In this document: in pieces, positions 297 through 15,284 of the stretch
Position numbering within the stretch: the stretch's first letter is position 1
Layout of the letters: each line of letters opens with the position of its first letter
From: an uncultured Planctomycetaceae bacterium
GTDB taxonomy: Bacteria; Planctomycetota; Planctomycetia; Planctomycetales; Planctomycetaceae
Direction of reading: 5' to 3'
Length of the DNA stretch: 64,000 nucleotides
Assembly (NCBI GenBank): GCA_964388415.1
Contig: CAYMAO010000001.1
Coordinates: forward strand, 65,072-129,071
Position numbers and translations under genes: made by a program
Notes under the pieces: model-generated
What the model was told of the DNA's origin: nothing
Database searches by the model: none
The model's input: the letters and a program-made list of their open reading frames with translations, nothing else

Positions 297-842
297 ATGG
301 ACTACGAATACTACTTCATCCGCATGATCGGCTGGGGACCGGCGCTGTTGGTGCTGCTGTTCGGAGTCGTATTGGCCGTTCGCAACGGAACCATTTCTCG
401 ACGCGGCCGTTGGTGCCTGGCAGCGGCGATGGCGCTGCAGGCCGCGCAGATGCTGGCCGTGCCAATGATCAAACACGCGGCCAACGGACTGATGAATGCG
501 CCGGCAATCGCGTGGAACAAGATCATTGAAGACCATTCACCGACCCCCCAAACGTACGGCAACCCGCCCGCGCTGGAAGATGGTTTCTACTTTTCTGATC
601 TGCCAACCGCCGATCAACTTCCGCGCCCGAAAACTGGTCAAATGGCGAGCCTGTTTTTGTGTCCATCGCATCTCTCGGAAGAACAACTCGAACAGCATTG
701 GCAGTTCTATCGCGCGAAACGCTGGAAATGGACACTTTGGGACGTGCTCCCCGAGAGCCTTTTGACCGCGCTGACCTGGGGCCTGATTCTCTTCGCCGTC
801 TTCGACCGCCCGGCAGCGCCGAAGTTTCTGGCGGAGGAATGA
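297..842 (+). CDS. small 3-TM membrane protein, paralog A (hypothetical)
   Basis: ATG start. Three hydrophobic helices. C-terminal WGLILFAVFDRPAAPKFLAEE is conserved with the next ORF. N-terminal MDYEYYFIRM matches MDFEYQIARLM of paralog B. Confidence 0.55.
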   Translation: MDYEYYFIRMIGWGPALLVLLFGVVLAVRNGTISRRGRWCLAAAMALQAAQMLAVPMIKHAANGLMNAPAIAWNKIIEDHSPTPQTYGNPPALEDGFYFSDLPTADQLPRPKTGQMASLFLCPSHLSEEQLEQHWQFYRAKRWKWTLWDVLPESLLTALTWGLILFAVFDRPAAPKFLAEE

Positions 843-890
843 CCGACGGCGCGAAATCGTTTGCTAACGGAAGGGCCGAAAATCTTGGGC

Positions 891-1265
891 ATGGATTTTG
901 AGTATCAAATTGCACGGCTCATGGCTCTGACGCCGATGTTGCTGGTCGTCCTGGCCGGAACGACATTGGCGATTCGGCGGCTCCCCAAGTATCCGCGGCC
1001 CTGTTGGCTCATTCTGGCGGCGCTGGCCATCGATGCGTTCAGCAGTCTCGCGTTGCCGGTTGCCATGCAATACGTGACGTCGCTCCTGTCGATGAATACC
1101 GGCGTCCAGAATCACGTGATGATGGCGTTCCTCTGGACGTTGCCCTATAGCCTGATCTCTGCCTTGGTTTGGGGAATGGTTCTGTTCGCCGTTTTCGACC
1201 GACCCGACTCGCCGAAGTTCCTCAAGGAGGACGACCTGGAAAGGGATATTTTGGACCGCCCCTGA
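891..1265 (+). CDS. small 3-TM membrane protein, paralog B (hypothetical)
   Basis: ATG at 891 (track start 861 is TTG). Same architecture and C-terminal motif WGMVLFAVFDRPDSPKFL as paralog A. Lacks the ~60-aa Pro-rich insert of A. Confidence 0.5.
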   Translation: MDFEYQIARLMALTPMLLVVLAGTTLAIRRLPKYPRPCWLILAALAIDAFSSLALPVAMQYVTSLLSMNTGVQNHVMMAFLWTLPYSLISALVWGMVLFAVFDRPDSPKFLKEDDLERDILDRP

Positions 1266-1475
1266 TTCGAGAAAACGTCGGTCGCTCGGAATGGCTCTGC
1301 AATCGCACGGTTGCCGTCAACACGGGGCTGGCACCCGCCGCTCGGGAATTTCGCTGAGAATCTCGCTGCGCGACGCCCCATTTGCGGGTTCTCCCTTCTC
1401 AGGGTAAGATTCCCACTTGGCGAGCCGTGGCGCGAACCGGCTGGAGTGCATCGCGTTCGCCGGGGTGGTACTGAC

Positions 1476-3218
1476 GTGCCGTATCTGAAAGTCATCAAAG
1501 GCGGGCTTCCGGGGCAGCTCATCGAGTTGCAGGGAGAGCGGACCATTTTCGGCCGGCATCCCGGCTGCCAAGTGATGCTGGACAACTCGGCGATCAGCCG
1601 GCATCACGCGCAGATTATCGAGAATCACGGAACGTACTTTCTGGAAGATTTGCGAAGCCGCAACGGAACGCACTTGAACGACGTCGCCGTCCGCGGCCGC
1701 ATGGAACTGCACGACGCCGACGAAATCAAGCTCTGCGATTTTGTCTTTCATTTTCTGCTGCGCGCGCCGGCCGGGCCAGCCCCCGAACCCACGCAGACAT
1801 TCGACCGTTCTTCCGGCGTCCTGGGCGGCTTTCGGGCCAGGGAAGCAACGGCGGTGCGATCGTCGTCGCCTCTGATCTCGTTGCCGAAGTCATCCCTGGA
1901 GGAACCGCAGCAGGGTTCGTCGATCATCACGTCGGTGGATGCGGGGTCGGTTCGGACGGTGCGCTACAACGTTCGCCCGGAAGTGAAATTGCGAGCCGTG
2001 CTGGAGATCAGCGCCGCGGTCGGGCGGCTGTTGAAACTGGACGACATGCTGCCGGTGATCTTGCAGTCGCTCTTCAAGATCTTTCCACAGGCGGACGCCG
2101 GTTTCGTGCTGCTGAAAGATCCGGCGACCGAGAAGCTTTCGGTTCGGTCCTCGTTGCAGCGGGCACAGCAGGAAGACGACGACGTTCCGGTCAGCATGAC
2201 CATCGTCAACATGGCGATGGACGGAAAACGTGCCGTGCTCAGCGCTGACGCCACGGGCGATTCGCGGTTCAAGACCAGCGAAAGCCTGGCGGACATGCGG
2301 ATCCACTCGGTGATGTGCGTGCCGATGGTCACGCAGACGAACGAGGCGCTGGGCGTGATTCAGATCAGCACGGGAGACATCGCTCAGCAATTCTCCGCGG
2401 ATGATCTCGATCTGCTGGCCAGCGTCGGAGCGCAGGCGTCGCTCGCCGTGGAAAACGCGAAACTGCACGAGTCGCTGGTGGCTCAGCGCGATCTGGATCG
2501 CGAGCTGGAATTCGCCACGCAAGTGCAGCTCGGCTTTCTGCCCAGCGAGCCGCCGCACGTGCCCGGTTACGAATTCGCCGATTATTATGAACCGGCCAAC
2601 CGCGTGGGAGGCGACTACTTCGATTACGTCCCGTTGCCAAACGGAAATGTCGCGGTGGCGGTCGGCGACGTGGCGGGCAAAGGCGTCCCCGCCGCACTGT
2701 TGATGGCCCGGCTTCATGCGTCGGCCCGGTATCATCTGCTGAGCGCGACCGGCCCCGCGGACGCCATGACCAGCCTCAACGCGGAGATCGCCACGAGCGG
2801 GCTGGGCTTCCGGTTCATCACGCTGGTCATGGCGGTCATCAACGTGAAGACGCATCAGATTCACTTCGCAAACGCCGGGCATCTGCCGCCGCTCATCCGC
2901 CGAGCCAGCGGCGTGGTCGAGGCCGTCGGCATGAAGGAATCAGGAATGCCGCTGGGACTGGGCGGCCCGCAGACATTCCGGGAGATCACCGTCGCCCTGG
3001 AGGCCGGCGAGGCGTGCGTGCTGTATACCGACGGCGTCACGGAAGCCATTGATGCGCAGCAGGAAATCTACGGTCGCATTCGATTGAATGACGCCATCCA
3101 GCGGGCCCCGGCATCGGCCAAGGAACTGGTCCAGTCGGTCGTGGCAGACGTCGAAAAGTTTTACGGCGACCTGCCGCAGCGCGACGACCTGTGCATCGTC
3201 GCCACGCGCCGGCTGTAG
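1476..3218 (+). CDS. FHA-GAF-PP2C (SpoIIE/RsbU-type) serine phosphatase
   Basis: FHA signature GRHPGCQVMLDNSAISRHHAQI...RSRNGTHLN. Central GAF-like region. C-terminal PP2C/SpoIIE motifs GGDYFDY and GDVAGKGVPAALLMA. Start placed at GTG 1476, preceded by GGGGTGG. The TTG 1311 N-extension looks non-protein-like. Confidence 0.8.
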   Translation: MPYLKVIKGGLPGQLIELQGERTIFGRHPGCQVMLDNSAISRHHAQIIENHGTYFLEDLRSRNGTHLNDVAVRGRMELHDADEIKLCDFVFHFLLRAPAGPAPEPTQTFDRSSGVLGGFRAREATAVRSSSPLISLPKSSLEEPQQGSSIITSVDAGSVRTVRYNVRPEVKLRAVLEISAAVGRLLKLDDMLPVILQSLFKIFPQADAGFVLLKDPATEKLSVRSSLQRAQQEDDDVPVSMTIVNMAMDGKRAVLSADATGDSRFKTSESLADMRIHSVMCVPMVTQTNEALGVIQISTGDIAQQFSADDLDLLASVGAQASLAVENAKLHESLVAQRDLDRELEFATQVQLGFLPSEPPHVPGYEFADYYEPANRVGGDYFDYVPLPNGNVAVAVGDVAGKGVPAALLMARLHASARYHLLSATGPADAMTSLNAEIATSGLGFRFITLVMAVINVKTHQIHFANAGHLPPLIRRASGVVEAVGMKESGMPLGLGGPQTFREITVALEAGEACVLYTDGVTEAIDAQQEIYGRIRLNDAIQRAPASAKELVQSVVADVEKFYGDLPQRDDLCIVATRRL

Positions 3219-3365
3219 TAAAGCCCGTGGCGTGTAAAGCCGATGGGGTCTCCTGGTCCCGCCGCTTCGATTTTGCAACCATTTTCCTTGTGGAATTTCG
3301 TGACCCCGGTCTCTATGATAGGAGAGCCTGCAATTGTGCCCGCCGAATCTCCTTCCTGACGAAAG

Positions 3366-4469
3366 ATGATGACTGTGAGCAACTTGGATCAACTCGTCGC
3401 CAAGGCCAAGGCCGATCTGGACGCCCACACCCGCGAAAATGTCCGCTGGCATTTCAGTCCGGAAACCGGCAGCCCGTATTGGCTGGAAAAGGCGAAATCA
3501 CTCAAGTTCGATCCGCTCAAAGACGTCAACTGTTTCGACGATCTGAAAAAATTCCCGCTCTTTGAAGACGATGAACTTCGCGGCGGACCGGTCCAGCGCT
3601 GGATTCCGAAAGGCCTCGCCGGCAAACCGACCTACGTCTTCGAAACTGGCGGCACGACCGGCATCCCCAAATCCCGCGTCGTCATCGAAGATCACTGGAT
3701 CGACTACGAACTCTTCAGCGAAACCCTCGACGACAAGCATTTCCCCAAGGGATCCAACTGGCTGATGCTCGGACCGTCCGGTCCGCGCCGCTTGCGGTTG
3801 GCCGTCGAACATCTGGCCCAGTTCCGCGGCGGCATCTGCTTCTGCGTCGACCTCGATCCCCGCTGGGTGATCAAGCTCATCAAGCAGGGCAAGATCAAGG
3901 AAGCGGAGGCGTATAAGGATCACGTCATCGACCAGACGATGACCATCCTCTCCGCCGGCCACGAGATCAAGTGCGCGTTCATGACGCCCAAGCTGCTCGA
4001 AGCGCTCGCCATGCGGCTGATCAAGGAAGGTTCCAGCATCGCCGAGACCGGCATCAAAGGCATCTTCGGCGGCGGGACGGAATTCTCCCCGCAGTGGTAC
4101 CGTTTCTGCTGCGAGGAACTCCTGGGCCCGGACGTCTTCATGACGCCGACTTACGGCAACACCCTGATGGGCCTGGCCTGCTCCAAGCCGTTCGACATCG
4201 CCGACAACTACAAGATCACCTACCATGGCCCGCAGCCGCGCGCCGTGATCGAAGTCGTGAAATTTGAGGACTACAACCAGCTCGTCGGCTACGGCGAAAC
4301 GGGCCGCGTCAAGCTGTACACCATGACCAAGGAACTCTTCATCCCCGGTTTCATGGAACGCGATGAAGGCGAACGCGAAAAGCCGCACGAGAAATACCCG
4401 TGGGACGGCATCTCCGGGACGCGGCCGTTCCATGTGTTCGCGAAGACGACGACGGTGGGAGTGTATTGA
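3366..4469 (+). CDS. acyl-protein synthetase / adenylate-forming enzyme (LuxE- or PaaK/F390-synthetase-like)
   Basis: ETGGTTGIPKS adenylation motif (compare LuxE TSSGTNGLKS, PaaK SSGTTGKPK). ~367 aa, typical LuxE length. Sits next to a LuxC-like reductase. Confidence 0.65.
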   Translation: MMTVSNLDQLVAKAKADLDAHTRENVRWHFSPETGSPYWLEKAKSLKFDPLKDVNCFDDLKKFPLFEDDELRGGPVQRWIPKGLAGKPTYVFETGGTTGIPKSRVVIEDHWIDYELFSETLDDKHFPKGSNWLMLGPSGPRRLRLAVEHLAQFRGGICFCVDLDPRWVIKLIKQGKIKEAEAYKDHVIDQTMTILSAGHEIKCAFMTPKLLEALAMRLIKEGSSIAETGIKGIFGGGTEFSPQWYRFCCEELLGPDVFMTPTYGNTLMGLACSKPFDIADNYKITYHGPQPRAVIEVVKFEDYNQLVGYGETGRVKLYTMTKELFIPGFMERDEGEREKPHEKYPWDGISGTRPFHVFAKTTTVGVY

Positions 4470-4524
4470 AGGGGGGATAGCGGAAGAGAATTAGAGTGGG
4501 TGGAAATGATAGCGAGGTCGCGAA

Positions 4525-5088
4525 ATGACCATTGATGAATTCATCGCCAGCCCGCTGAGTGGTGATTGCAGCCTGCTCAAGCGACTCTATGACTTTGAAT
4601 ACCAAGCACTTGCAAACAAGCTGGGCTGTGTTCTCTCATTATTGGACATAGAGTCATATGAGGGAACGGCCTTGTGCAATCCAGCACTAACGCCAATTAA
4701 CTCCGTGACCTTTGCAACTACTGGGGGTGATGACGTTCATTTCGGACTAGTTGCAATCGAGCGGAAATATAGCGATTTATCGCCGATCGTAATGACAGTT
4801 CCCATGGCGGGCGACAACCCGAAAGAGACGAATTTCGTCGTGGGCGAGTCTTTACATGAATTTCTAAGGCTTGGCTGCGTACACGACTTTTTTGACCTGG
4901 AAAAGCTCGCATACTCATGGAGAACTGATTTATTTGGTCAGTATAAAAAAACACCTGCTCTGATTGATGAGCCAATCTACGTAAGATTTCGAAAAGAATT
5001 TGAACTGAAGCCATGGATTGAGCTGGAGTCGAGGTTTCAAGAACTCCAAAACAAATACTGGCCGCTATTGCGATTTCGGCGCGGATAA
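4525..5088 (+). CDS. hypothetical protein, low-GC orphan ORF
   Basis: ATG with GAGGT RBS 8 nt upstream. Visibly AT-richer than both flanking genes. No motif recognised. Soluble, acidic and aromatic-rich. Confidence 0.5.
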   Translation: MTIDEFIASPLSGDCSLLKRLYDFEYQALANKLGCVLSLLDIESYEGTALCNPALTPINSVTFATTGGDDVHFGLVAIERKYSDLSPIVMTVPMAGDNPKETNFVVGESLHEFLRLGCVHDFFDLEKLAYSWRTDLFGQYKKTPALIDEPIYVRFRKEFELKPWIELESRFQELQNKYWPLLRFRRG

Positions 5089-5143
5089 CTACCTCGCAAT
5101 TTTCTAAGCGAACTGTCTACACCTCTAACCCTCTGGATCTCTC

Positions 5144-6580
5144 ATGATCGAACTTCCCGTCCTCCGCTGGGGCAAACCGTACGAAAGTATGGAAAAGGCC
5201 GACGTCGTCCATTTTGAAACGGGCGAAGTCCTTGCCAAGGTCCATCAAGCCACCGGGTCGATGCTCGGCATGGACATGCGCCATGCCAAGAAGGCCCGAG
5301 ACGCCTTGCGGCAGCTTTCGATCGATCAGTTGATCGCGATGACAGCCAAGGCCGCCGACCTGTATTTGAACCAGACGCTGCCGCTCGGGACCGGCACGCA
5401 GTCCCCTGCCGAATTCTGCCGCATGCAGTCCGCGACCACCGGACTTCCAGAGCACATGTGCGCCGGCAACATGAAGAAGAATTACTTCGTGCTGACCCAC
5501 ATGCGCGACGTGCTGGAATCCCTCACCCGCGGGCTGCCGCTCGACATCTTCACCAAGGGCTTCGGTCAGGAAGCTCGCGGCGTGATGCTCAGCTACCAGG
5601 CGAATACGTCCGTCCTGGGCATGGTGCTCCCGTCCAACAGTCCGGGCGTCCATACGCTGTGGATGCCCGTCATCCCCTTGCAGATCGGCCTGGTCCTCAA
5701 GCCTGGCCCGCAGGAACCCTGGACCCCGTACCGCATGGCCGAAGCCTTCTTTCAGGCAGGCGTCCCTCGGGAAGCCATCTGCCTGTATCCCGGCGGACCG
5801 GACGTCGGCGCCGCCGTCATTGAACATTGCCCGCGGACCATGATCTTCGGCGGCACCGCCACCGTGGAACGCTACCACGGCGATCCCCGTGTCCAGGCTC
5901 ACGGCCCCGGCTTCAGCAAGTTGCTGCTCGGCGACGACGTCGTCGACAACTGGCCCGAATACCTCGACCTGATGTTCGACAGCATCGTGATGAACTCCGG
6001 CCGCGGCTGCATCAACTGCTCGGGCATCTGGGCGTCGCGTCATACGGAGGAGATCGCCGATGCGCTCGCCAAGCGGATGGGGCCGATTGCGCCGCTGCCC
6101 ATGACCGACCCGAAGGCCCAACTCGCTGCGTTCACGGTGCCGGGCCAGGCCGAGGCGATCAACAACCAGATCGATGAAGGCTGCAAAGCGTCCGGCGTGA
6201 CCGAAGTGACGGCGAAATATCGCGACGGTTCCCGCTGGGTGAAAAACGAACGCTGCGATTATTTGCGGCCGACGCTGATCCACTGCAACGCGCCGGGTTC
6301 GGACATGTCCAAGGCGGAATACATGTTCCCGTTCGCCTCGGTCGTGAAATGTCCGCAGGCCGACATGCTCAAGAAAATCGGCCAGACGCTGGTCTGCTCG
6401 GCGATCACCAAGGACGAGAAATGGTCGCAGGAACTGCTCGATGCGACGCACATCGACCGGCTGAACATCGGCCCCTTGAAAACGATCGCCCTCAACTGGC
6501 TGCAGCCGCACGAAGGGAACATCATTGACTTCCTGTTCCGCAACCGCGCGTTCCAGAACAGCCCGCCGCCGCCGCATTAA
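5144..6580 (+). CDS. LuxC-like long-chain acyl-CoA reductase (aldehyde dehydrogenase superfamily)
   Basis: Aligns by eye to V. harveyi LuxC: NSPGVHTL...KPGPQ; IFGGTATVERYHGD vs VAWGGPDAINWAVEH; catalytic-Cys region SGRGCINCSGIW vs DQRACFSAQNIY. 478 aa. Confidence 0.65.
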   Translation: MIELPVLRWGKPYESMEKADVVHFETGEVLAKVHQATGSMLGMDMRHAKKARDALRQLSIDQLIAMTAKAADLYLNQTLPLGTGTQSPAEFCRMQSATTGLPEHMCAGNMKKNYFVLTHMRDVLESLTRGLPLDIFTKGFGQEARGVMLSYQANTSVLGMVLPSNSPGVHTLWMPVIPLQIGLVLKPGPQEPWTPYRMAEAFFQAGVPREAICLYPGGPDVGAAVIEHCPRTMIFGGTATVERYHGDPRVQAHGPGFSKLLLGDDVVDNWPEYLDLMFDSIVMNSGRGCINCSGIWASRHTEEIADALAKRMGPIAPLPMTDPKAQLAAFTVPGQAEAINNQIDEGCKASGVTEVTAKYRDGSRWVKNERCDYLRPTLIHCNAPGSDMSKAEYMFPFASVVKCPQADMLKKIGQTLVCSAITKDEKWSQELLDATHIDRLNIGPLKTIALNWLQPHEGNIIDFLFRNRAFQNSPPPPH

Positions 6581-6714
6581 CGAGATCAGATCGCCGCTTG
6601 CCGTTTCGCGGCGCTGACCGCATGCCTGACATCAGTTTTCGTGTTGAGTCAACCGGCCGATTTCGCGTACAGTGCTCGAATCGGAAACGGACATATTTCA
6701 CGGAGGAACGGCGC

Positions 6715-7521
6715 ATGCGCTGCCGCAGGGTCTGGTGTGTCGTCTTGTTGGCGGGTCTCGGTTGTGGGGAAACCAAGACTCCCCCCTCGGCGGCAGCCAA
6801 TCCTGCCAAGACTGTTCCGCCGAAAAACGGAGAACTGCTGTCCGCGCCGTCGTCGAACGGGCGGTCCAACGCAGTTGCCGACAAGGCGTTCGCCGATCTG
6901 CTCGAAGCGACGCATGGCTCGAACCCCGACGCCTGGAGCGCGGCCGAGAAATCGCTGACCGAACTCGGGGCGCAGGCTGTTCCCGCATTGGCGCGTTACT
7001 TGGCTCACGACGATCAGACGGCCCGGGAACTCGCCGTGCAGTTTCTGGCCCAACTCGGGCCGGACGCCAAAGGAGCGGAGCCTGCGTTGACGAAAGCTCT
7101 GGCCGACGACTCGCCGATGGTTCGCGTCAATGCGGCGGCGGCGCTCTTGGCGCTCAATGCGTCCGCCACGGAGGCTGTCGCCGCGCTGCGGTCGATGCTC
7201 CAAGATGATGATGCGTCGGTCCGATTGCCTGCCGCGATTTCGCTGGCCGGGATGTCTGACGCCGTGAAGGATGCCGTTCCCGTGCTGACCGAACTACTGA
7301 CCGCCCGGGAACCCAGTATTCGGCAGACCGCAGCCGAAACGCTGGGAAAGCTGGGGAAGAATGCGGAGTCGAGCCTGGGCGCGCTCCAGCAATTGGAGTC
7401 GGACGATAACACCGAGGTCCGCTCCGCAGCCGCAGCAGCCGTGAATGCGATCGAGGCTGCGGAGAACTCCTCGTCAGAGACGAAGCCGGCGGACAGCGTC
7501 GAGAACGAAACGAATCCGTGA
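6715..7521 (+). CDS. HEAT/PBS-lyase repeat protein with N-terminal signal peptide (possible lipoprotein)
   Basis: ATG 6715 preceded by GGAGGA. Signal peptide MRCRRVWCVVLLAGLGCG. Repeated HEAT-like units (AVPALARYLAHDD..., AEPALTKALADDSPMVRVNAAAAL..., AVPVLTELLTAREPSIRQTAAETLGKLG). Confidence 0.7.
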   Translation: MRCRRVWCVVLLAGLGCGETKTPPSAAANPAKTVPPKNGELLSAPSSNGRSNAVADKAFADLLEATHGSNPDAWSAAEKSLTELGAQAVPALARYLAHDDQTARELAVQFLAQLGPDAKGAEPALTKALADDSPMVRVNAAAALLALNASATEAVAALRSMLQDDDASVRLPAAISLAGMSDAVKDAVPVLTELLTAREPSIRQTAAETLGKLGKNAESSLGALQQLESDDNTEVRSAAAAAVNAIEAAENSSSETKPADSVENETNP

Positions 7522-7629
7522 AGCGAACGGAGCAGTTTTCTCGCGACGCGGCGACTTCCTGGCGGAGCGCTGTGTTCCGCCACGGCACCTGTGTACGATG
7601 ATTCTCAGTTCATTCCTGAGGATCGCCCC

Positions 7630-8748
7630 ATGTCGCAATCCGTGCCTGAAATTGTGCCGGCCGATTATTTGCCGAAATTGCCGCGCGATCGTTCGCCCGG
7701 CATTGGGTGCATCGGCACCGGGTTCATCATGGCCGATTGTCACCTCGTGGCATATCGGCAAGCCGGGTTTCGGCCGGTGGCCATCACGTCGCGGCAGCGG
7801 CAAAATGCGGAGGCCGTTGCGGCTCGGCATCGGATTCCTCGCGTCCATGACGATGTGAAGTCTCTCGCGGCTGATCCCGAGGTGGTCGTCGTCGACGTCG
7901 CCGTTCCGCCGGATATTCAGCACGAGGTGATTCGTGAAGTCTTGACACGGGGCAAGCAGATTCGCGGCATCCTGGCGCAAAAACCGCTGGGTGTGGATTA
8001 TCGGCAGGCGAAAGACATTGTGCGGATGTGCCGGGACGCCGGGGTGACGCTCGCCGTCAATCAGAATATGCGCTACGACCAGTCGGTCCGAGCGGCGAAA
8101 TCGCTTTTAGAAAAAAAACGGCTCGGCGACCCGGTGCTGGCGACGATCGATATGCGGGCCATTCCGCATTGGATGCCGTGGCAAGAGCGGCAGGGCTGGG
8201 TCACTTTGCGAATCATGAGCATCCATCATCTGGACACGTTCCGATTCTGGCTGGGCGATCCTGTCCGCGTCTTCGCCAGCATTCGGCCTGATCCGCGCAC
8301 GGCGAAGAAATTCGCCCATGAAGACGGCATCTGCCTGTATATCCTCGAATTTGCGAACGGCGCCCGGGCTTCGAGTTGGGATGACGTCTGGGCCGGTCCG
8401 GCGCGCGAGGGTGCCGGCGCGGACATCGGCATCCAGTGGCGGATTGAAGGAACCGAGGGGTTAGCCCGCGGGACAATCGGCTGGCCCGAATATCCCAAGC
8501 CGACGTCCAGTACGCTGGATTTCTCCACAATTCACGACGCCGGGACGTGGCATCAGCCGCGCTGGCCGGAAGTCTGGTTTCCGGACGCATTTGTCGGGCC
8601 GATGGCTCAATTGTTGTGCGCTCTGGAAGACGGCACTCCGCCGGAAATCAGCGGTGACGACAACCTGAAGACGATGGCCCTGGTCGATGCGTGCTATCTT
8701 TCGGCCCGAGAGCATCGCGCGGTGGAACTGGCCGAAGTTCTTGCTTGA
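7630..8748 (+). CDS. Gfo/Idh/MocA family oxidoreductase
   Basis: Rossmann N-terminus [22 protein letters not shown] and Gfo/Idh/MocA C-domain. ATG 7630 with GAGGA 9 nt upstream. Track start 7591 is GTG. Confidence 0.75.
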
Positions 8749-8753
8749 CGTGA

Positions 8754-10133
8754 ATGGTGAGGGTGATGGCTCAACATCTTCAAGAGCGGTCGCTGCCGCG
8801 AAACGTGCGATTGCTCTTGGTGGATGTGGCCGGGCAGAAGGTCAACACCTTTACCGCCGAAGTGATTCGGGAGTTCGCGGACTTTCTCGCCGAGATTTCT
8901 CGGCAGCCGGACGTGCGCGGCCTGATCGTGGCCAGCGGCAAGCCGGGGCAGTTTTTCGCCGGGGCCGACCTGCATGATCTCGCCGATCCGAATCCTGCCG
9001 CACACGTGCGATGGACTTCGGCCATTCTCGACGGCAATCGCTTGATGACGGTGTTGTCGGAACTGCCGTTTCCCACGGTGACGCTGATCAACGGCGCCTG
9101 CCTGGGCGGCGGCGCGGAACTGGCGCTCGCGACGGATTTCCGCGTCGTCGCCGACGAGCCGCAGGTGAAAATCGGCCTGCCGGAAGTGACGCTCGGCCTG
9201 ATTCCCGGCTGGGGCGGCACGCAACGGCTGCCCCGACTCGTGGAGTTGGGCGCGGCGTTGGAGATGATCGTCACGGGCCAGCCGGTGGATGCCCGGCGTG
9301 CGGCGGACATCGGTCTGGTGGATGCCGTTGTACCTGCCGACCGGTTGCTTGACGCCGGCCTGGCGCGGATCGAAGACATGCAGCAGTCGCAAGAGTGGCG
9401 TGCGATGCGTCAACAGCGGAGACAACCGTTGACCTTGTCCGAGGAGCACCAGTCGCAACTATTTTCCGCTGCGGAAGCCGGGCTGCTCCAGAAATCGCCG
9501 GAGTCGAATTCCGCCCCGTGGACTGCGTTCCGCGTGGTGCGGGACGGCGTCGTGGTGCCACTGGAAGACGGGTTAGCACTTGAACGGACGGAGTTCTTGC
9601 ATCTGGTCGGCAGCCCCGTTTCCACAAAACTGATTACAGAGTTTTTCAATACATCGCGTCGGCAGCGTTCCGCGGACGTCCAGGAAGCTGGCAACACGCC
9701 CCGAGCGTTGCAGACCGTCGGAGAACAGGGAGCACGCATGTCTGAGCCACGGACGAATCCCTTCCTCGGCCATTTGCAACTGCCGCCGGTCACAGTCAGC
9801 GAGCAGGTGGCCCGGCTGGAATTCACGGTGGAGGCGATTCATCTCCGGCACGGCGGCGTCGTGCACGGCGGATTGCTGGCCGCGGTTTTGGACAGCGTGT
9901 CAGGGTACGCCGCTTATGAAGTTGCACCGCCCGGGACAGACCTGGTCTCCGTGCAGTTGAACTTGAATCTGACGGCGACGGCCCGGTTGGGTGACCGACT
10001 GACCGCCACGGCTCGGGTGCAACATGCCGGTCGCCGCACGGCCGTGGTGCAGGGGGAAATCCGCCGCGGCGATGGTAAGCTGGTCGCGTTGGGGAGCGTG
10101 ACGGTTTTTTTCATCGCGGAAGGGCTCACGTAG
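8754..10133 (+). CDS. enoyl-CoA hydratase/isomerase (crotonase) fused to PaaI/4HBT hotdog thioesterase
   Basis: Crotonase motifs FFAGADL and GGGAELALATDFRV. C-terminal hotdog motif HGGVVHGGLLAAVLDS. Confidence 0.75.
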   Translation: MVRVMAQHLQERSLPRNVRLLLVDVAGQKVNTFTAEVIREFADFLAEISRQPDVRGLIVASGKPGQFFAGADLHDLADPNPAAHVRWTSAILDGNRLMTVLSELPFPTVTLINGACLGGGAELALATDFRVVADEPQVKIGLPEVTLGLIPGWGGTQRLPRLVELGAALEMIVTGQPVDARRAADIGLVDAVVPADRLLDAGLARIEDMQQSQEWRAMRQQRRQPLTLSEEHQSQLFSAAEAGLLQKSPESNSAPWTAFRVVRDGVVVPLEDGLALERTEFLHLVGSPVSTKLITEFFNTSRRQRSADVQEAGNTPRALQTVGEQGARMSEPRTNPFLGHLQLPPVTVSEQVARLEFTVEAIHLRHGGVVHGGLLAAVLDSVSGYAAYEVAPPGTDLVSVQLNLNLTATARLGDRLTATARVQHAGRRTAVVQGEIRRGDGKLVALGSVTVFFIAEGLT

Positions 10134-10166
10134 TTTCTCGTTCGAACTCGTCGTAAGATCATCAGG

Positions 10167-11075
10167 ATGAATCACTCGTCAATCACACTGTCGGCGGGAG
10201 CGCGGTTTCGTGCGGCAATAGACGCCGAACGGCCGCTTCAAGTGGTCGGCACGGTCAATGCGTATTGTGCGCTGTTGGCCGAGCGGGCCGGTTTTCGGGC
10301 GTTGTATCTGTCGGGAGCGGGCGTGGCGAATGCGTCGTTCGGTCTGCCGGACCTGGGCATCACCACGCTGAATGACGTGTGTGAAGACGTTCGCCGCATC
10401 ACCCAGGCAACGCCGCTGCCGTTGTTGGTCGATGCCGATACGGGCTGGGGCGGGGCTTTCCTGATCGGGCGCACGATCCGGGAGTTGCACCGAGCCGGCG
10501 CGGCGGGTTGCCATCTCGAAGACCAGGTGCAGGCGAAGCGGTGCGGTCATCGTCCTGGGAAAACGCTGGTCAGCAGTGCGGAAATGTGTGACCGGCTGAA
10601 AGCCGCGATGGATGCCTCGCCCGATGATCAGTTCGTGATCATGGCTCGGACCGATGCCCATGCGGTGGAAGGACTGACGGCGGCCATCGATCGAGCCGGG
10701 GCCTATGTCGACGCCGGGGCCCACATGATCTTCGCCGAGGCGCTCACCAGCCTGGAAGACTATCGGGCTTTCACCCAGGCGATCTCGGTGCCCGTGCTGG
10801 CGAACATCACCGAATTCGGCAAGACGCCCTTGTTTCGCACCGACGAACTCGGCGCCAGTGGAGTGCGGCTGGTGCTCTACCCCTTGAGCGCCTTCCGCGC
10901 GATGAATCGCGCCGCCGAACGGGTTTATCGTACGCTCAGGAAGGAACAGTCCCAGGCTTCGGTTCTCGAACTGATGCAAACCCGAGACGAACTGTACGAT
11001 GTCCTCGGCTATCTCCGCTACGAGCAGCAGCTCGACGCGTTGTTTTCTCACGATCCACCCGGCAAGCCGTCATGA
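10167..11075 (+). CDS. prpB: 2-methylisocitrate lyase (PEP mutase/ICL superfamily)
   Basis: KRCGH active-site signature within [15 protein letters not shown]. Overall PrpB-like sequence. 4-nt overlap (ATGA) with the downstream citrate synthase homolog. Confidence 0.8.
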
Positions 11076-12226
11076 GTGATTCTCCAGCCAATTCGCAGTT
11101 CAAGCCGAAAAAATCGGTGGCGCTGTCGGGCGTCATCGCAGGCAATACCGCGCTGAGCACCGTCGGCCAGACCGGCAACGACCTGCATTACCGCGGATAC
11201 GACATCCGGGACCTCGCCGCGAACTGCGAGTTCGAAGAAGTCGCGTACCTGTTGATCCACGGCACGCTGCCGAACGCCACGGAACTCGCCGCGTACAAGG
11301 CGAAGCTGCAATCGCTGCGAACTTTGCCGACCGCGGTGTGCCGCGTGTTGGAGAATCTTCCTCAGGCAACGCATCCGATGGATGTGCTGCGGACCGGCGT
11401 TTCTGTTCTGGGTTGCCTGGAGCCGGAAGCGCAGACTCATGATCCGGCCATGGCCCGAGACCTGATCGACCGGTTGCTGGCATCGCTCGTCTCGATGCTG
11501 CTGTACTGGCATCACTTCGCTGCGCAGGGCCGCCGCATCGATGTTTCGTCATCGGAAAGCTCAGTGGGGGGCCAGTTTCTGCAACTGCTGCACGGTTCGC
11601 GCCCGCCGGCGTCGCAGGTGCAGGCCATGCACGGGTCGCTGACCCTCTATGCTGAACATGAATTCAATGCGTCGACGTTTGCGGCAAGAGTCATAGCCGG
11701 AACCGGATCCGATCTGTATTCCGCCGTGACGGGGGCCATTGGTGCGCTGCGCGGTCCGAAACACGGGGGGGCGAATGAATACGCGTTCCTGATCCAGAGC
11801 CGCTATGCAACACCCGATGAAGCCGAGGCCGACATCCTGAGACGCATGGCCGCGAAGGAAATTCTCATCGGCTTTGGACATCCCGTCTACACGATTTCCG
11901 ATCCGCGGAACGAGGCGATTAAGGAGATCGCCCGCTCGCTCTCCGAAGCGGCCGGCGACATGACGCTGTTTCACATCGCGGAGCGCATCGAAACGGTGAT
12001 GTGGCGCGAGAAGAAAATGTTTCCCAATCTCGACTGGTACAGCGCGGTGGCCTATCACCGGTTGGGTATCCCCACGGCCATGTTCACTCCGTTGTTTGTG
12101 CTGGCCCGCATCACAGGCTGGGGGGCTCACGTGCTGGAGCAGCGTGCGGACAACAAGATCATCCGGCCCGGGGCCCATTACGTCGGGCCGGACAATCGGC
12201 CCTTCGTGCCTCGGGATCGGCGCTGA
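11072..12226 (+). CDS. prpC: 2-methylcitrate synthase / citrate synthase family
   Basis: Citrate synthase family sequence (GYDIRDL..., GFGHPVY, HGGANE). Translationally coupled to prpB. Confidence 0.8.
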
Positions 12227-12289
12227 TTTCTCATTGTCGTCTGTAAGCCCTTTTGCGCCCCCCCGCTCGGGTCGAGATCCCAGCGCGAA

Positions 12290-13222
12290 TCACATCTCTC
12301 GGGCCGATTCACGGCCGGGGATTCTGCGATAGATCTGCAGCATTCCGATCAGCATCACGAATCCGAGGCCCGCGAGCGCCGCCAGAATCAACAGGCCATA
12401 CCAGTCACCGAAGATGCCGCGCGTGCGGAGCCAGATCGGCCCCCAACTGTACAAGACGATCAGCGCGCCGCCGCCGAGAAACGGCCCGAACGGAATGTAG
12501 GGCTTGTTGGTCATCAGCTTGAGCGGAATCCCGACCAGCAGCCCCAAGAGCGGCGCGAGCAGAAACGCGCAGACCGCGGGCTGCCAGCCAAGAAAACTGC
12601 CGATCACCGCCATCAGCGTGACATCCCCGAACCCCAGCGTTTCCCGGCCCATGAGCCAACTGCTCACGGCGCGCACCAGCCACGTCAGGCCCGCGCCGAT
12701 GACCAGTCCGGCACCGCTCCAGGACAGCCCATGCCAGTGACGGTGGGCGTCAAACCAGTCGGGAAAATACGGCCCGCGAACCTGCGGCATTTCGATGCTC
12801 CAATCCACCCACAGATGGATCAACTGCAGCTCGCCGGAGAGAAACGCCGCCAGTAAGCCCACCGCCATCCCGGGCAGGGTGATCTGATCCGGGATCACGT
12901 AGCCGTCCCAATCCACGGCGGTGGCGACGAGAATCAGGCCGATCAGCACCTGGTGGTAGATTAACCGAAGGTTCTCACCCCAGGGCGATGGCAAAACCTC
13001 CGGGGTCGCTTGCCCGCCGGCGGCAACCTTTTGAGCCAGAATGACGCACAGGCCAATGTACCAGAGAGTCATCGTCCCGATCCGCAGGCGTTGCGTGCCG
13101 ATCGAAAGTGCCGTTCGGCCAGTTTCGCGGCGATCTTGAACAATCAATCGCAGCGACCACCAGCCGAAGAACAGGCCCAGAGGAGGAGCGATCAGAACGG
13201 TGATCGAGACTGGATTCTGCAA
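12290..13222 (-). CDS. A24-family type IV prepilin leader peptidase
   Basis: Polytopic membrane protein with GFGDVTLMAVIGSFLGW matching the prepilin peptidase catalytic-Asp region. True start may be an internal Met (e.g. MTLWYIG). Confidence 0.7.
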   Translation of the reverse strand: MQNPVSITVLIAPPLGLFFGWWSLRLIVQDRRETGRTALSIGTQRLRIGTMTLWYIGLCVILAQKVAAGGQATPEVLPSPWGENLRLIYHQVLIGLILVATAVDWDGYVIPDQITLPGMAVGLLAAFLSGELQLIHLWVDWSIEMPQVRGPYFPDWFDAHRHWHGLSWSGAGLVIGAGLTWLVRAVSSWLMGRETLGFGDVTLMAVIGSFLGWQPAVCAFLLAPLLGLLVGIPLKLMTNKPYIPFGPFLGGGALIVLYSWGPIWLRTRGIFGDWYGLLILAALAGLGFVMLIGMLQIYRRIPGRESAREM

Positions 13223-13347
13223 GCGGCGGATTCCCTTCAGATCAGAAACATATCCATCCAGACGCTTCAGTTCGTGAACGGTGTTGGATACGATTGGAAA
13301 TTCCTGCCGCGGTCTTGAGGCGGCAATTTCGTGAATGCTGAAGCATT

Positions 13348-13364
13348 CGGCACCAATGTTGCAA
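13348..13364 (+). promoter_or_regulatory. sigma-54 (-24/-12) promoter for amt
   Basis: cGGCACcaatgTTGCA matches TGGCAC-N5-TTGCA with correct GG/GC spacing, ~118 nt upstream of the amt start. Immediately preceded by palindrome GAATGCTGAAGCATTC (13332-13347). Confidence 0.6.
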
Positions 13365-13481
13365 TAGTATCGGCTCGGTGGTGAACCGACAGCGAGCGTG
13401 CCGGACGGCTCGCAGGCTCAGCGGAAATGGCTCAAGGCCACGTTCAACATCGTATCTATTTACTATAAAAGGGGTTGTGAG

Positions 13482-14879
13482 ATGGGTCGGCTATTCGGGA
13501 TTCTGCTCGCGGTGATTTTTGCAACCTGTTTTTCAGAAACAACTTACGGAGATATTGAAGTCGCCAGCCCTCCGGCGGCCGCTCCTGCGTCCGTCCCGTT
13601 GGACAAAGCCGATATCACTTGGGTGCTTGTTTCTTCGGCATTGGTGCTCATGATGACGGCACCTGGTCTGGCGTTGTTTTATGGCGGGCTCGTTCGCAAA
13701 AAAAATATTCTGGGGGTGATGATGCAGTGCATGTTCCTCATGGGGATCATGTCGCTCGTCTGGGCGCTCTGGGGTTACAGCCTCGCCTTCAGCGGCGACG
13801 TGGGCGGGTACGGAGTGATTGGGGACCTCGGGTTTGTCGGCCTTCAAGGCGTGATGCCGACGGCTGCCGCGGCAGGAGAATATCCGAAAGATGATACCGC
13901 CACCATTCCACGCATGTTGCACATGATTTTCCAGATGATGTTCTTCATTATTACGCCGGGGCTGATTTGCGGCGCCTTTGCCGAGCGGATGAAATTCTCG
14001 GCGATGGTCGTCTTTTCGGTGCTTTGGGGAACGCTGATCTACTGTCCGGTCGCGCATTGGGTCTGGTCGGGCAGCGGCTGGTGTTCGGAATTCAACACGA
14101 ATGTCGCGTTCAAGATCAAGGCCATTGATTTTGCCGGCGGGACGGTGGTGCACATCACATCGGGGTTCTCGGCGCTGGTCTGTGCGCTGCTGTTGGGAAA
14201 GCGGCTGGGCTACGGTCAAGAGCCGATGCCGCCGCACAACTTGACATACACCTGTATCGGAGCGGCTCTGTTGTGGGTCGGTTGGTTCGGCTTCAACGGG
14301 GGCAGCCAATTGGCGTCAGACGTCCGCGCGGTGAACGCCTTCGTGTCGACGCACATGGCGGCAGCCGCCGGGCTGGTGGCGTGGGCCGGGATGGAATGGG
14401 TATTGCGCGGCAAGCCGAGCATCCTGGGGGCGTGTTCCGGCGCGGTCGCCGGGCTGGTCTGCATCACGCCCGCCTGCGGTTCGGTCACGCCGATGAACGG
14501 CATCCTCCTGGGCCTGGCGGCGGGCGTGGTCTGTTACTATGCGTGCACGAAACTCAAGAATCAGTTCAAGTATGATGACTCGCTGGACGCATTCGGCGTC
14601 CACGGCGTCGGCGGGACGCTGGGGGCCATTCTGACCGGCGTGTTCGCCTCCAAGGCGATCACCGGCCCGACCGGGTTGCACGGGTTGATCGAAGGAAACG
14701 CGAAGCAGTTCGTCGATCAGTTGATTGCCATCGGCGCGGCGGCTGCATTGGCCATCGTCGGCACGGTGATTCTGCTGAAAGTCATCGATGCCGTGATCGG
14801 GCTTCGCATCAGCCAGGCCGGCGAACTGCAGGGGCTGGACATCAATCAACATGGTGAAGAAGGCTATATCTTCCTATAA
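13482..14879 (+). CDS. amt: ammonium transporter (Amt family)
   Basis: Signal/TM N-terminus and Amt signature DFAGGTVVHI. ATG 13482 with AAAAGGGG RBS. Track start 13398 is GTG. Confidence 0.9.
   Translation: MGRLFGILLAVIFATCFSETTYGDIEVASPPAAAPASVPLDKADITWVLVSSALVLMMTAPGLALFYGGLVRKKNILGVMMQCMFLMGIMSLVWALWGYSLAFSGDVGGYGVIGDLGFVGLQGVMPTAAAAGEYPKDDTATIPRMLHMIFQMMFFIITPGLICGAFAERMKFSAMVVFSVLWGTLIYCPVAHWVWSGSGWCSEFNTNVAFKIKAIDFAGGTVVHITSGFSALVCALLLGKRLGYGQEPMPPHNLTYTCIGAALLWVGWFGFNGGSQLASDVRAVNAFVSTHMAAAAGLVAWAGMEWVLRGKPSILGACSGAVAGLVCITPACGSVTPMNGILLGLAAGVVCYYACTKLKNQFKYDDSLDAFGVHGVGGTLGAILTGVFASKAITGPTGLHGLIEGNAKQFVDQLIAIGAAAALAIVGTVILLKVIDAVIGLRISQAGELQGLDINQHGEEGYIFL

Positions 14880-15284
<405 letters not shown>

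Follow-up and report, generated by a model that had tools for sequence, protein, structure and literature searches.

What reaction do two neighbouring planctomycete genes for an adenylate-forming enzyme and an aldehyde dehydrogenase (ALDH)-like protein serve, and what is the compositionally different gene doing between them? The question is raised by a locus in a 64,000-nucleotide stretch of DNA (hereafter the window) from an uncultured Planctomycetaceae bacterium (GenBank assembly GCA_964388415.1, contig CAYMAO010000001.1, positions 65,072 to 129,071 of the forward strand). Three open reading frames (ORFs) of 367, 187 and 478 amino acids lie there on the same strand and are designated A, B and C. 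A preliminary description, made from the sequence alone, had taken the outer two for a LuxE-like acyl-protein synthetase and a LuxC-like acyl-coenzyme A (CoA) reductase, interrupted by a foreign-looking ORF. The ORFs exist as it described them, and an identical A-B-C locus is present on a 188-kb metagenome contig. That all three are genuine genes and not chance ORFs follows from the more than 8000 homologs of A, from the joint conservation of C with A, and, for B, from 35 homologs that share invariant motifs as well as from a confidently predicted fold. Our reading of the locus, to which we assign a probability of roughly 0.68, is that A and C are the two proteins of an EhpF/EhpG-type carboxylic-acid reductase, and that B is a horizontally mobile accessory gene outside the enzyme, which landed in the spacer between A and C.

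A phmmer search of the PDB with A matched EhpF (3l2k/3hgu) with an E-value of 5e-42 and approximately 31% identity, residues 17–357 of A being aligned with residues 19–355 of the 366 in EhpF. With a profile of the A family as the query, the E-value for EhpF was 6e-133, and the next match was PaaK (2e-5). The adenylate-forming motif TGGTTGIPKS mentioned in the preliminary description is indeed present in A, and within this phosphate-binding loop (P-loop) Gly96 is invariant and Gly95, Gly99, and Pro101 are at least 90% conserved in the family alignment. Alignments of A to CoA ligases of 436–504 residues end ahead of the C-terminal subdomain of the latter, which, together with the length of about 367 residues, indicates that A is truncated. 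As judged from these alignments, A is a full-length EhpF homolog and a predicted truncated adenylating enzyme of the ANL superfamily. The EhpF-like family is small (261 representatives at E ≤ 1e-30 after clustering at 50% identity), and the planctomycete clade containing A stands well apart from the remaining members (at most 47% identity). The nearest relatives of the A locus are Planctomycetaceae and Schlesneria genomes, which bears out the planctomycete origin assumed in the preliminary description. The identity of A is 74–87% across 80 planctomycete loci (Schlesneria, Fuerstiella, Planctomicrobium, and other labelled lineages), 76–79% for named homologs from Gimesia, Polystyrenella, and Calycomorphotria, and up to 93% among metagenome proteins. 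Outside the 50%-identity cluster of A, its nearest full-length outgroup (47% identity) is located at L098 (ena:ERZ25039482 contig_111327, 7001–10913). Downstream of A, this contig carries fragmented ORFs that may represent a frameshifted EhpG-like gene, followed by a split Fe-dependent alcohol dehydrogenase (ADH) gene; it contains many short split genes and appears to be error-prone.

C is clearly a member of the ALDH superfamily, with a match to PF00171 (Aldedh) of 73.6 bits (cut-off 23; E-value 1.6e-20) over residues 17–407. Full-length BLASTP alignments were obtained with EhpG (2e-28, approximately 23% identity) and with the corresponding partner proteins of Streptomyces goshikiensis (1e-29) and Halalkalicoccus (8e-33), whereas the best match to an ordinary ALDH structure in the PDB was only partial (3.5e-12). 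The predicted catalytic nucleophile (Cys289) and oxyanion-hole residue (Asn165) are present without exception in the aligned EhpG-like proteins of five phyla. In ALDHs, a general-base glutamate activates water for the hydrolysis of the thioacyl-enzyme. The corresponding position in EhpG-like proteins lies within an invariant GPGxS motif and is occupied by histidine in planctomycetes (His253), glutamine in EhpG, arginine in Streptomyces, and tyrosine in the haloarchaeon. The absence of this glutamate from C is consistent with an enzyme that forms and reduces a thioester and does not hydrolyse it. Over its whole length C thus resembles EhpG, and its residue pattern is the one expected of a reductase, as far as sequence comparison can tell.

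If these assignments are correct, the reaction would proceed in three steps. A would activate the carboxylate with ATP to give an acyl-adenylate, attack by Cys289 of C would turn the activated acyl group into a thioester, and NAD(P)H would reduce the thioester so that the aldehyde is released. The overall reaction, the direct transfer of the acyl group from AMP to the cysteine, and the cofactor use are deduced from the homologs. This type of chemistry, in which an acid is converted via acyl-AMP to an aldehyde, probably applies, and the planctomycete pair is probably specific for a substrate other than that of EhpF/EhpG. In this respect the general idea of the preliminary description, an adenylate-forming enzyme and a reductase that make an aldehyde, probably holds, as the homology to EhpF/EhpG and the domain fusions described below point to it. 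The coordinates of the features are summarized in Table 1.

Table 1 Features of the A-B-C locus, with positions numbered from the first nucleotide of the window.
Feature	Position	Strand	Basis
Gene A, EhpF-family adenylating enzyme (predicted), truncated ANL-superfamily protein of 367 aa without the C-terminal subdomain	3366..4469	+	PDB phmmer, family profile
ANL phosphate-binding loop TGGTTGIPKS, A residues 94–103	3645..3674	+	Translation; aligned with EhpF SGGTTGAPKY
A-B spacer, 55 nt	4470..4524	+	Sequence
Gene B, inserted accessory gene, 187 aa, SUKH/SMI1-KNR4-like fold (predicted), unannotated family	4525..5088	+	
B-C spacer, 55 nt	5089..5143	+	Sequence
Gene C, 478 aa, ALDH-fold protein similar to EhpG, predicted to form a thioester and to act with A as its NAD(P)H-dependent reductase	5144..6580	+	
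C Asn165 codon, predicted oxyanion-hole residue (PSNSP)	5636..5638	+	Invariant column; aligns with PWNFP of 5gtk
C His253 codon, at the ALDH general-base Glu position (ELGGK motif)	5900..5902	+	Alignment to 5gtk
C Cys289 codon, predicted catalytic nucleophile	6008..6010	+	Aligned with the catalytic Cys of GQNC, 5gtk

LuxE and LuxC come from the same pair of superfamilies as A and C, and they follow the same logic, in which a short ANL-like enzyme of approximately 370 residues is combined with an ALDH-fold reductase that has a catalytic cysteine. Under this explanation A would be a self-acylating acyl-protein synthetase and C an acyl-CoA or acyl-protein reductase, and the fatty aldehyde would be used for wax, alcohol, or hydrocarbon formation. 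Of the assignment of C to LuxC, the cysteine at the catalytic position stood (Cys289) while the family did not: neither PF04443 (LuxE) nor PF05893 (LuxC) gave a match at E ≤ 1, and the hidden Markov model (HMM) searches returned just sub-threshold AMP-binding (Pfam; the only match of A, 14.7 bits, below the cut-off) and F390-synthetase (NCBIfam, weak) signals together with the generic Aldedh match. This is the outcome that the preliminary description itself had named as refuting its assignment. Profile searches of the PDB returned EhpF, generic ANL ligases, and ALDHs, with no LuxE-named chain among the 42 matches of the A family at E ≤ 10 and no LuxC-named chain among the best 60 of the C family, which found ordinary ALDHs. 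LuxE is acylated on a cysteine near its C-terminus, whereas the final 30 residues of A (…EKYPWDGISGTRPFHVFAKTTTVGVY) contain no cysteine. Pfam and NCBIfam hold no model for the EhpF or EhpG family, so that HMM libraries alone are uninformative for A and C; authentic EhpF and EhpG likewise draw just generic sub-threshold matches from both.

To what extent A and C belong together was judged from 80 genome loci with A (L016–L095), among which 73 were informative, their downstream sequence being 2 kb or longer. C follows A on the same strand in 66 loci (66/80, or 66/73 informative loci), with 64–75% identity, and it does so directly in 43 loci. The co-conservation that the preliminary description had expected in related genomes was therefore borne out. 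When all flanking ORFs of the 80 loci were clustered without supervision, A (62 loci) and C (59 loci) were the only recurrent ones, and no other neighbour in the window was syntenic with A-C in these loci. All other neighbours change, and the A-C pair is thus a self-contained module. In a single comparison, methylcitrate synthase was 54% identical between two genomes, as against 74–87% for A across genera. These observations establish A-C as a free-standing, strongly conserved two-gene module in Planctomycetaceae that behaves like a core gene pair. A planctomycete-type A-C pair was also found at L087 (CAZLOQ010000073.1; 74% and 69% identity), which is labelled 'uncultured Chitinophaga sp.'; this probably reflects an error of binning or labelling rather than an occurrence in Bacteroidota.

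The alternative that A and C are mere neighbours, with C oxidising aldehydes as an ordinary dehydrogenase and A being a ligase of unrelated function (amide-forming, for instance), would agree with the generic Aldedh score of C and with seven loci that carry A with no C adjacent to it or within 2–6 kb. Some EhpF-like genes elsewhere also have no ALDH partner and lie beside a type I polyketide synthase (PKS) or beside radical-SAM genes. One of them, on a plasmid of Streptomyces sp. Mut1 (L003, 5941–13008), is annotated 'arylcarboxylate reductase' and is directly followed by a type I PKS gene; for this name, which NCBI gives to some homologs, we found no source in the papers searched, and it matches no NCBIfam HMM. 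We nevertheless consider it highly improbable that A and C are unrelated, as they are adjacent on the same strand in 66 of the 73 informative loci while the other neighbours vary, the pairing is conserved over five phyla, and C does not have the glutamate required for thioester hydrolysis.

Pairs of an EhpF-like gene directly followed by an Aldedh gene were found in Pantoea, Burkholderia, Streptomyces, a haloarchaeon, a Nitrospirota genome, and metagenome operons. In Pantoea, ehpG (annotated 'aldehyde dehydrogenase family protein') directly follows ehpF inside a phenazine (phz) cluster. It is known that EhpF–O convert phenazine-1,6-dicarboxylate to D-alanylgriseoluteic acid (AGA) and that AGA-type clusters pass via the aldehyde 6-formylphenazine-1-carboxylic acid. 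A structural study of EhpF reportedly proposed that EhpF and EhpG make this aldehyde via an adenylate. The Burkholderia pair adjoins PhzD/PhzE-like genes and a DAHP synthase gene, the Streptomyces pair adjoins genes for DAHP synthase and ADC synthase, and the order in a metagenome operon is DAHP synthase, chorismate-binding enzyme, GATase, EhpF-like/Aldedh pair, and SDR. The pairs with informative context therefore sit in clusters for chorismate-derived aromatic acids. No phz, DAHP-synthase, or chorismate-utilising gene lies beside A-C in the window, and none recurs in the 80 planctomycete loci. A third conserved neighbour was sought as a hint to the substrate, and this was given up: just A and C recur, and the contexts of nearer outgroups were uninformative or cut at contig ends.

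These contexts also bear on the Lux-type explanation. Nothing supports the fatty-acid substrates that had been envisaged; where the context of relatives is informative, these act on aromatic acids derived from chorismate. Neither a lipid gene nor a gene resembling luxD or luxAB is linked to the pair in any of the 80 related loci. Taken with the family searches and the C-terminus of A, this makes a LuxE/LuxC-type fatty-acid reductase very unlikely.

Two fusion proteins provide further information on the product. In P0245 (Streptomyces, 824 aa), an EhpF-like domain is fused to a class-III aminotransferase, and in P0264 (L099, 5426–8965) one is fused to a Zn-dependent ADH, with an Aldedh gene and a condensation-domain gene following. 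Since aminotransferases and ADHs both consume aldehydes, the fusions support an aldehyde product. The two proteins resemble compact acid-to-amine and acid-to-alcohol modules, respectively.

An aldehyde could also be connected with the acid by a CoA-dependent route, in which A would be a PaaK-like acid–CoA ligase, C would be a CoA-acylating ALDH or acyl-CoA reductase, and free acyl-CoA would pass between them in the catabolic or the reductive direction. A shows weak similarity to PaaK/F390 synthetase and to 4-chlorobenzoate–CoA ligase, the top NCBIfam match of C is the CoA-acylating methylmalonate-semialdehyde dehydrogenase (36 bits, far below the cut-off), and the loss of the general-base glutamate is compatible with CoA-acylating ALDHs as well. 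However, all of the CoA-ligase models scored A far below their cut-offs, and A lacks the entire C-terminal subdomain, which during domain alternation in ANL enzymes serves the thioester-forming half-reaction. The tight coupling of A and C and the fusions to aldehyde-consuming enzymes fit direct channelling. Consequently, we regard the CoA-dependent route as unlikely and retain the EhpF/EhpG-type reductase, with direct transfer between the two proteins, as the reading of A-C.

Gene B differs from its neighbours in composition. The GC content of the B region is 0.46 against a background of 0.59–0.63, and that at third codon positions (GC3) is 0.48 for B, 0.81 for A, and 0.84 for C, which confirms the foreign look that had been noted. 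No family match to the B sequence was found in Pfam, NCBIfam, PDB, or PADLOC. Its structure was predicted with a mean confidence score (pLDDT) of 92.8, and the predicted fold is SUKH-like and not that of an alpha/beta-hydrolase; the closest matches are immunity proteins of the SUKH/SMI1-KNR4 superfamily (YobK, RhsPI, and Knr4). On the basis of this model, B appears to have a SUKH-like fold and may be an immunity-type protein; its family is unannotated. The proposal that B takes the place of the acyltransferase LuxD was abandoned, as was a role for it as a component of the system, in view of its predicted fold, the lack of family matches in these databases, and the unrelated contexts of its homologs.

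B is not part of the A-C enzyme. It might in principle be a functional third subunit, a regulator, or a self-protection factor of A-C, and its position is in keeping with that: it lies on the same strand, the spacers on either side are 55 nt long, and no terminator was found in either of them. For the same reasons B is probably co-transcribed with its neighbours, and A, B, and C would then form one transcript. No promoter signal was seen between the genes either, the A-B spacer has no Rfam match, and Rfam detected no riboswitch or other RNA element in positions 3000–7000 of the window. In spite of this arrangement, B was not present in any of the 66 other A-C pairs, and in other genomes unrelated genes fill the same slot. 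The homologs of B occur at unrelated loci and on mobile elements, where none of them is linked to A or C. Together with the deviating GC3, these findings make a role of B as a component of A-C hardly credible.

No transposon-like ends were found around B, apart from a 10-nt imperfect inverted pair at 4509–4518 and 5091–5100. The two 55-nt spacers had seemed by eye to pair with each other, but this was discarded, as the free energy of the duplex (−33.7) was close to that of shuffled sequences (−31.2 ± 4.1; z = −0.6). Insertion scars of B are not mappable against uninterrupted relatives, the spacers being unalignable between genera. At L012 (ena:ERZ25074695 ctg323744, 372–15272), a unit of approximately 5 kb occurs in three tandem copies and contains genes for a tyrosine integrase and an IS91-type Y2 transposase, together with a member of the B family and two small ORFs. 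Here B-family genes are carried as the cargo of a mobile element.

The spacer between A and C proved to be occupied in other genomes as well. It measures at most 260 nt in 43 loci and at least 400 nt in 21 loci, and the long spacers encode unrelated small genes. Specifically, these encode four-helix-bundle proteins of the type known from intervening sequences (IVSs) of 23S rRNA (PF05635/TIGR02436), GxxExxY proteins of the PD-(D/E)XK group (PF13366/TIGR04256), clan-AA protease-like proteins (below the cut-off), and a 455-aa AAA+Nudix protein; in one case the insert measures 4 kb and contains two genes. Examples of occupied spacers are found at L032, L038, L040, L060, L062, L065, L067, L090, and L095, and at 4470–5143 of the window. 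In 821 kb of flanking DNA and the window (approximately 885 kb), the slot gene families occurred 19 times in the spacer and 3 times elsewhere, and all three of the latter occurrences directly adjoin A or C. In a tree of the A genes, nearest neighbours carry different slot occupants, and five or more separate lineages contain genes of the IVS type. Both observations imply that the turnover of the slot is rapid. The A-C spacer is thus a recurrent, fast-turnover insertion slot for small, selfish-looking genes across Planctomycetaceae.

Inserts of the IVS and GxxExxY types are flanked by strong inverted repeats (L032, L040, L067, L095, L038, and L065; for example GGTCCGTTGTCAGTGG ... CCACTGACAACGGACC), whose duplexes have z-scores of −2.7 to −7.9 against shuffled sequences. 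The stems recall the stem-loop layout of rRNA intervening sequences. For the clan-AA and Nudix inserts, and for B in the window, pairing between the two flanks was not significant in the same comparison. Some of the 'empty' spacers (L048, L054, L093, L075, L046, and L043) hold very stable hairpins (z-scores of −6.6 to −11.7), which may be remnants left after the loss of the ORF.

A more far-reaching view would combine both aspects of the locus. A-C would be a core carboxylate reductase of Planctomycetaceae, lineage-defining, that makes an essential aldehyde, its spacer would be a privileged dock for stem-flanked, IVS-like mini-genes, with RNase III-type processing possibly separating the cistrons, and B would be a new SUKH-fold member of the floating gene pool. 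We regard this combination as speculative and unlikely. If it were true, IVS-like elements (PF05635 and PD-(D/E)XK/GxxExxY), which are otherwise known from 23S rRNA, would be colonising a protein-coding operon.

Two adjacent ORFs of the window, at 297–842 (181 aa) and 861–1265 (134 aa), resemble paralogous genes for small membrane proteins with a common C-terminal motif, LxWGxxLFAVFDRPxxPKFL. The gene just upstream of A (1311–3218) encodes a protein that combines FHA, GAF, and PP2C/SpoIIE phosphatase domains, according to the Pfam labels of the identical contig, and has no synteny to A in other genomes. At 2–5 kb downstream of C (8754–12226) lie genes for an enoyl-CoA hydratase/thioesterase fusion, methylisocitrate lyase, and 2-methylcitrate synthase, which belong to the methylcitrate cycle. 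At L026 (7561–10173), where C is absent, a homolog of this synthase (54% identical) and a PrpD-like gene (assigned by eye) come directly after A. The presence of methylcitrate-cycle genes near A in the window and at L026, that is, in 2 of 81 loci, is probably a coincidence.

Sequence comparison and gene context taken together, the A-C module is most likely a planctomycete variant of the EhpF/EhpG two-protein carboxylate reductase, distantly related to it, strongly conserved, and free of a biosynthetic context. Enzymes of this type are scarcely characterised, and the new aspects here are the core-like conservation in planctomycetes and the behaviour of the spacer as a slot. The identity of A across genera (74–87%) suggests that planctomycete metabolism includes an aldehyde-forming step that has gone unrecognised and is probably important. 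A compact catalyst that converts acids to aldehydes without a carrier protein, as predicted here, could be of interest for biocatalysis. The A-C spacer, for its part, offers a clean natural system in which the movement of four-helix-bundle IVS proteins, GxxExxY nucleases, and orphan genes of a similar kind could be studied, along with the reasons for their choice of particular transcribed spacers.

Several known systems reduce activated carboxylates to aldehydes and can be compared with A-C. The single-polypeptide (type I) carboxylic acid reductase (CAR), which consists of an A domain, a PCP, and an SDR-type R domain, and alpha-aminoadipate reductase share the predicted overall reaction of A-C, in which an acid, ATP, and NAD(P)H give an aldehyde, AMP, and pyrophosphate. 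In contrast to these enzymes, A-C has no carrier-protein domain with its phosphopantetheine arm and no SDR-type reductase, but an ALDH fold with a cysteine nucleophile; accordingly, none of A, B, and C gave a Pfam match to PP-binding or NAD_binding_4. In the ProB/ProA system, glutamate 5-kinase and gamma-glutamyl-phosphate reductase convert an ATP-activated carboxylate to an aldehyde by means of two proteins and a thioester on the cysteine of an ALDH-superfamily enzyme. A-C is predicted to share this two-protein principle and the cysteine, whereas ProB/ProA activate by phosphorylation and A would activate by adenylation. There is no family tie beyond the ALDH superfamily, and NCBIfam gave no ProA match. 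As in LuxE/LuxC, a short adenylate-forming enzyme is predicted to pass the acyl group to a cysteine of an ALDH-fold reductase, from which the aldehyde would be released; unlike LuxE/LuxC, A-C shows no detectable family-level similarity to these proteins, no C-terminal cysteine in A, no LuxD or LuxAB, and no lipid context. The EhpF/EhpG pair belongs to the D-alanylgriseoluteic acid cluster of Pantoea agglomerans and has homologs in Xenorhabdus, Pectobacterium, and Proteus. The planctomycete pair differs from it in that its sequence identity is low (approximately 31% for A and 23% for C), and in that it has no phz genes or surrounding biosynthetic cluster, is core-like across Planctomycetaceae, and in the window is split by the inserted gene B. 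The two pairs correspond in several respects: A can be aligned with EhpF over its full length and has the same truncated ANL architecture of approximately 366 residues and the same P-loop, C can be aligned with EhpG over its full length and has the same invariant cysteine, asparagine, and GPGxS motif and the same loss of the general-base glutamate, and in both the gene for the adenylating enzyme precedes the ALDH-like gene on one strand.

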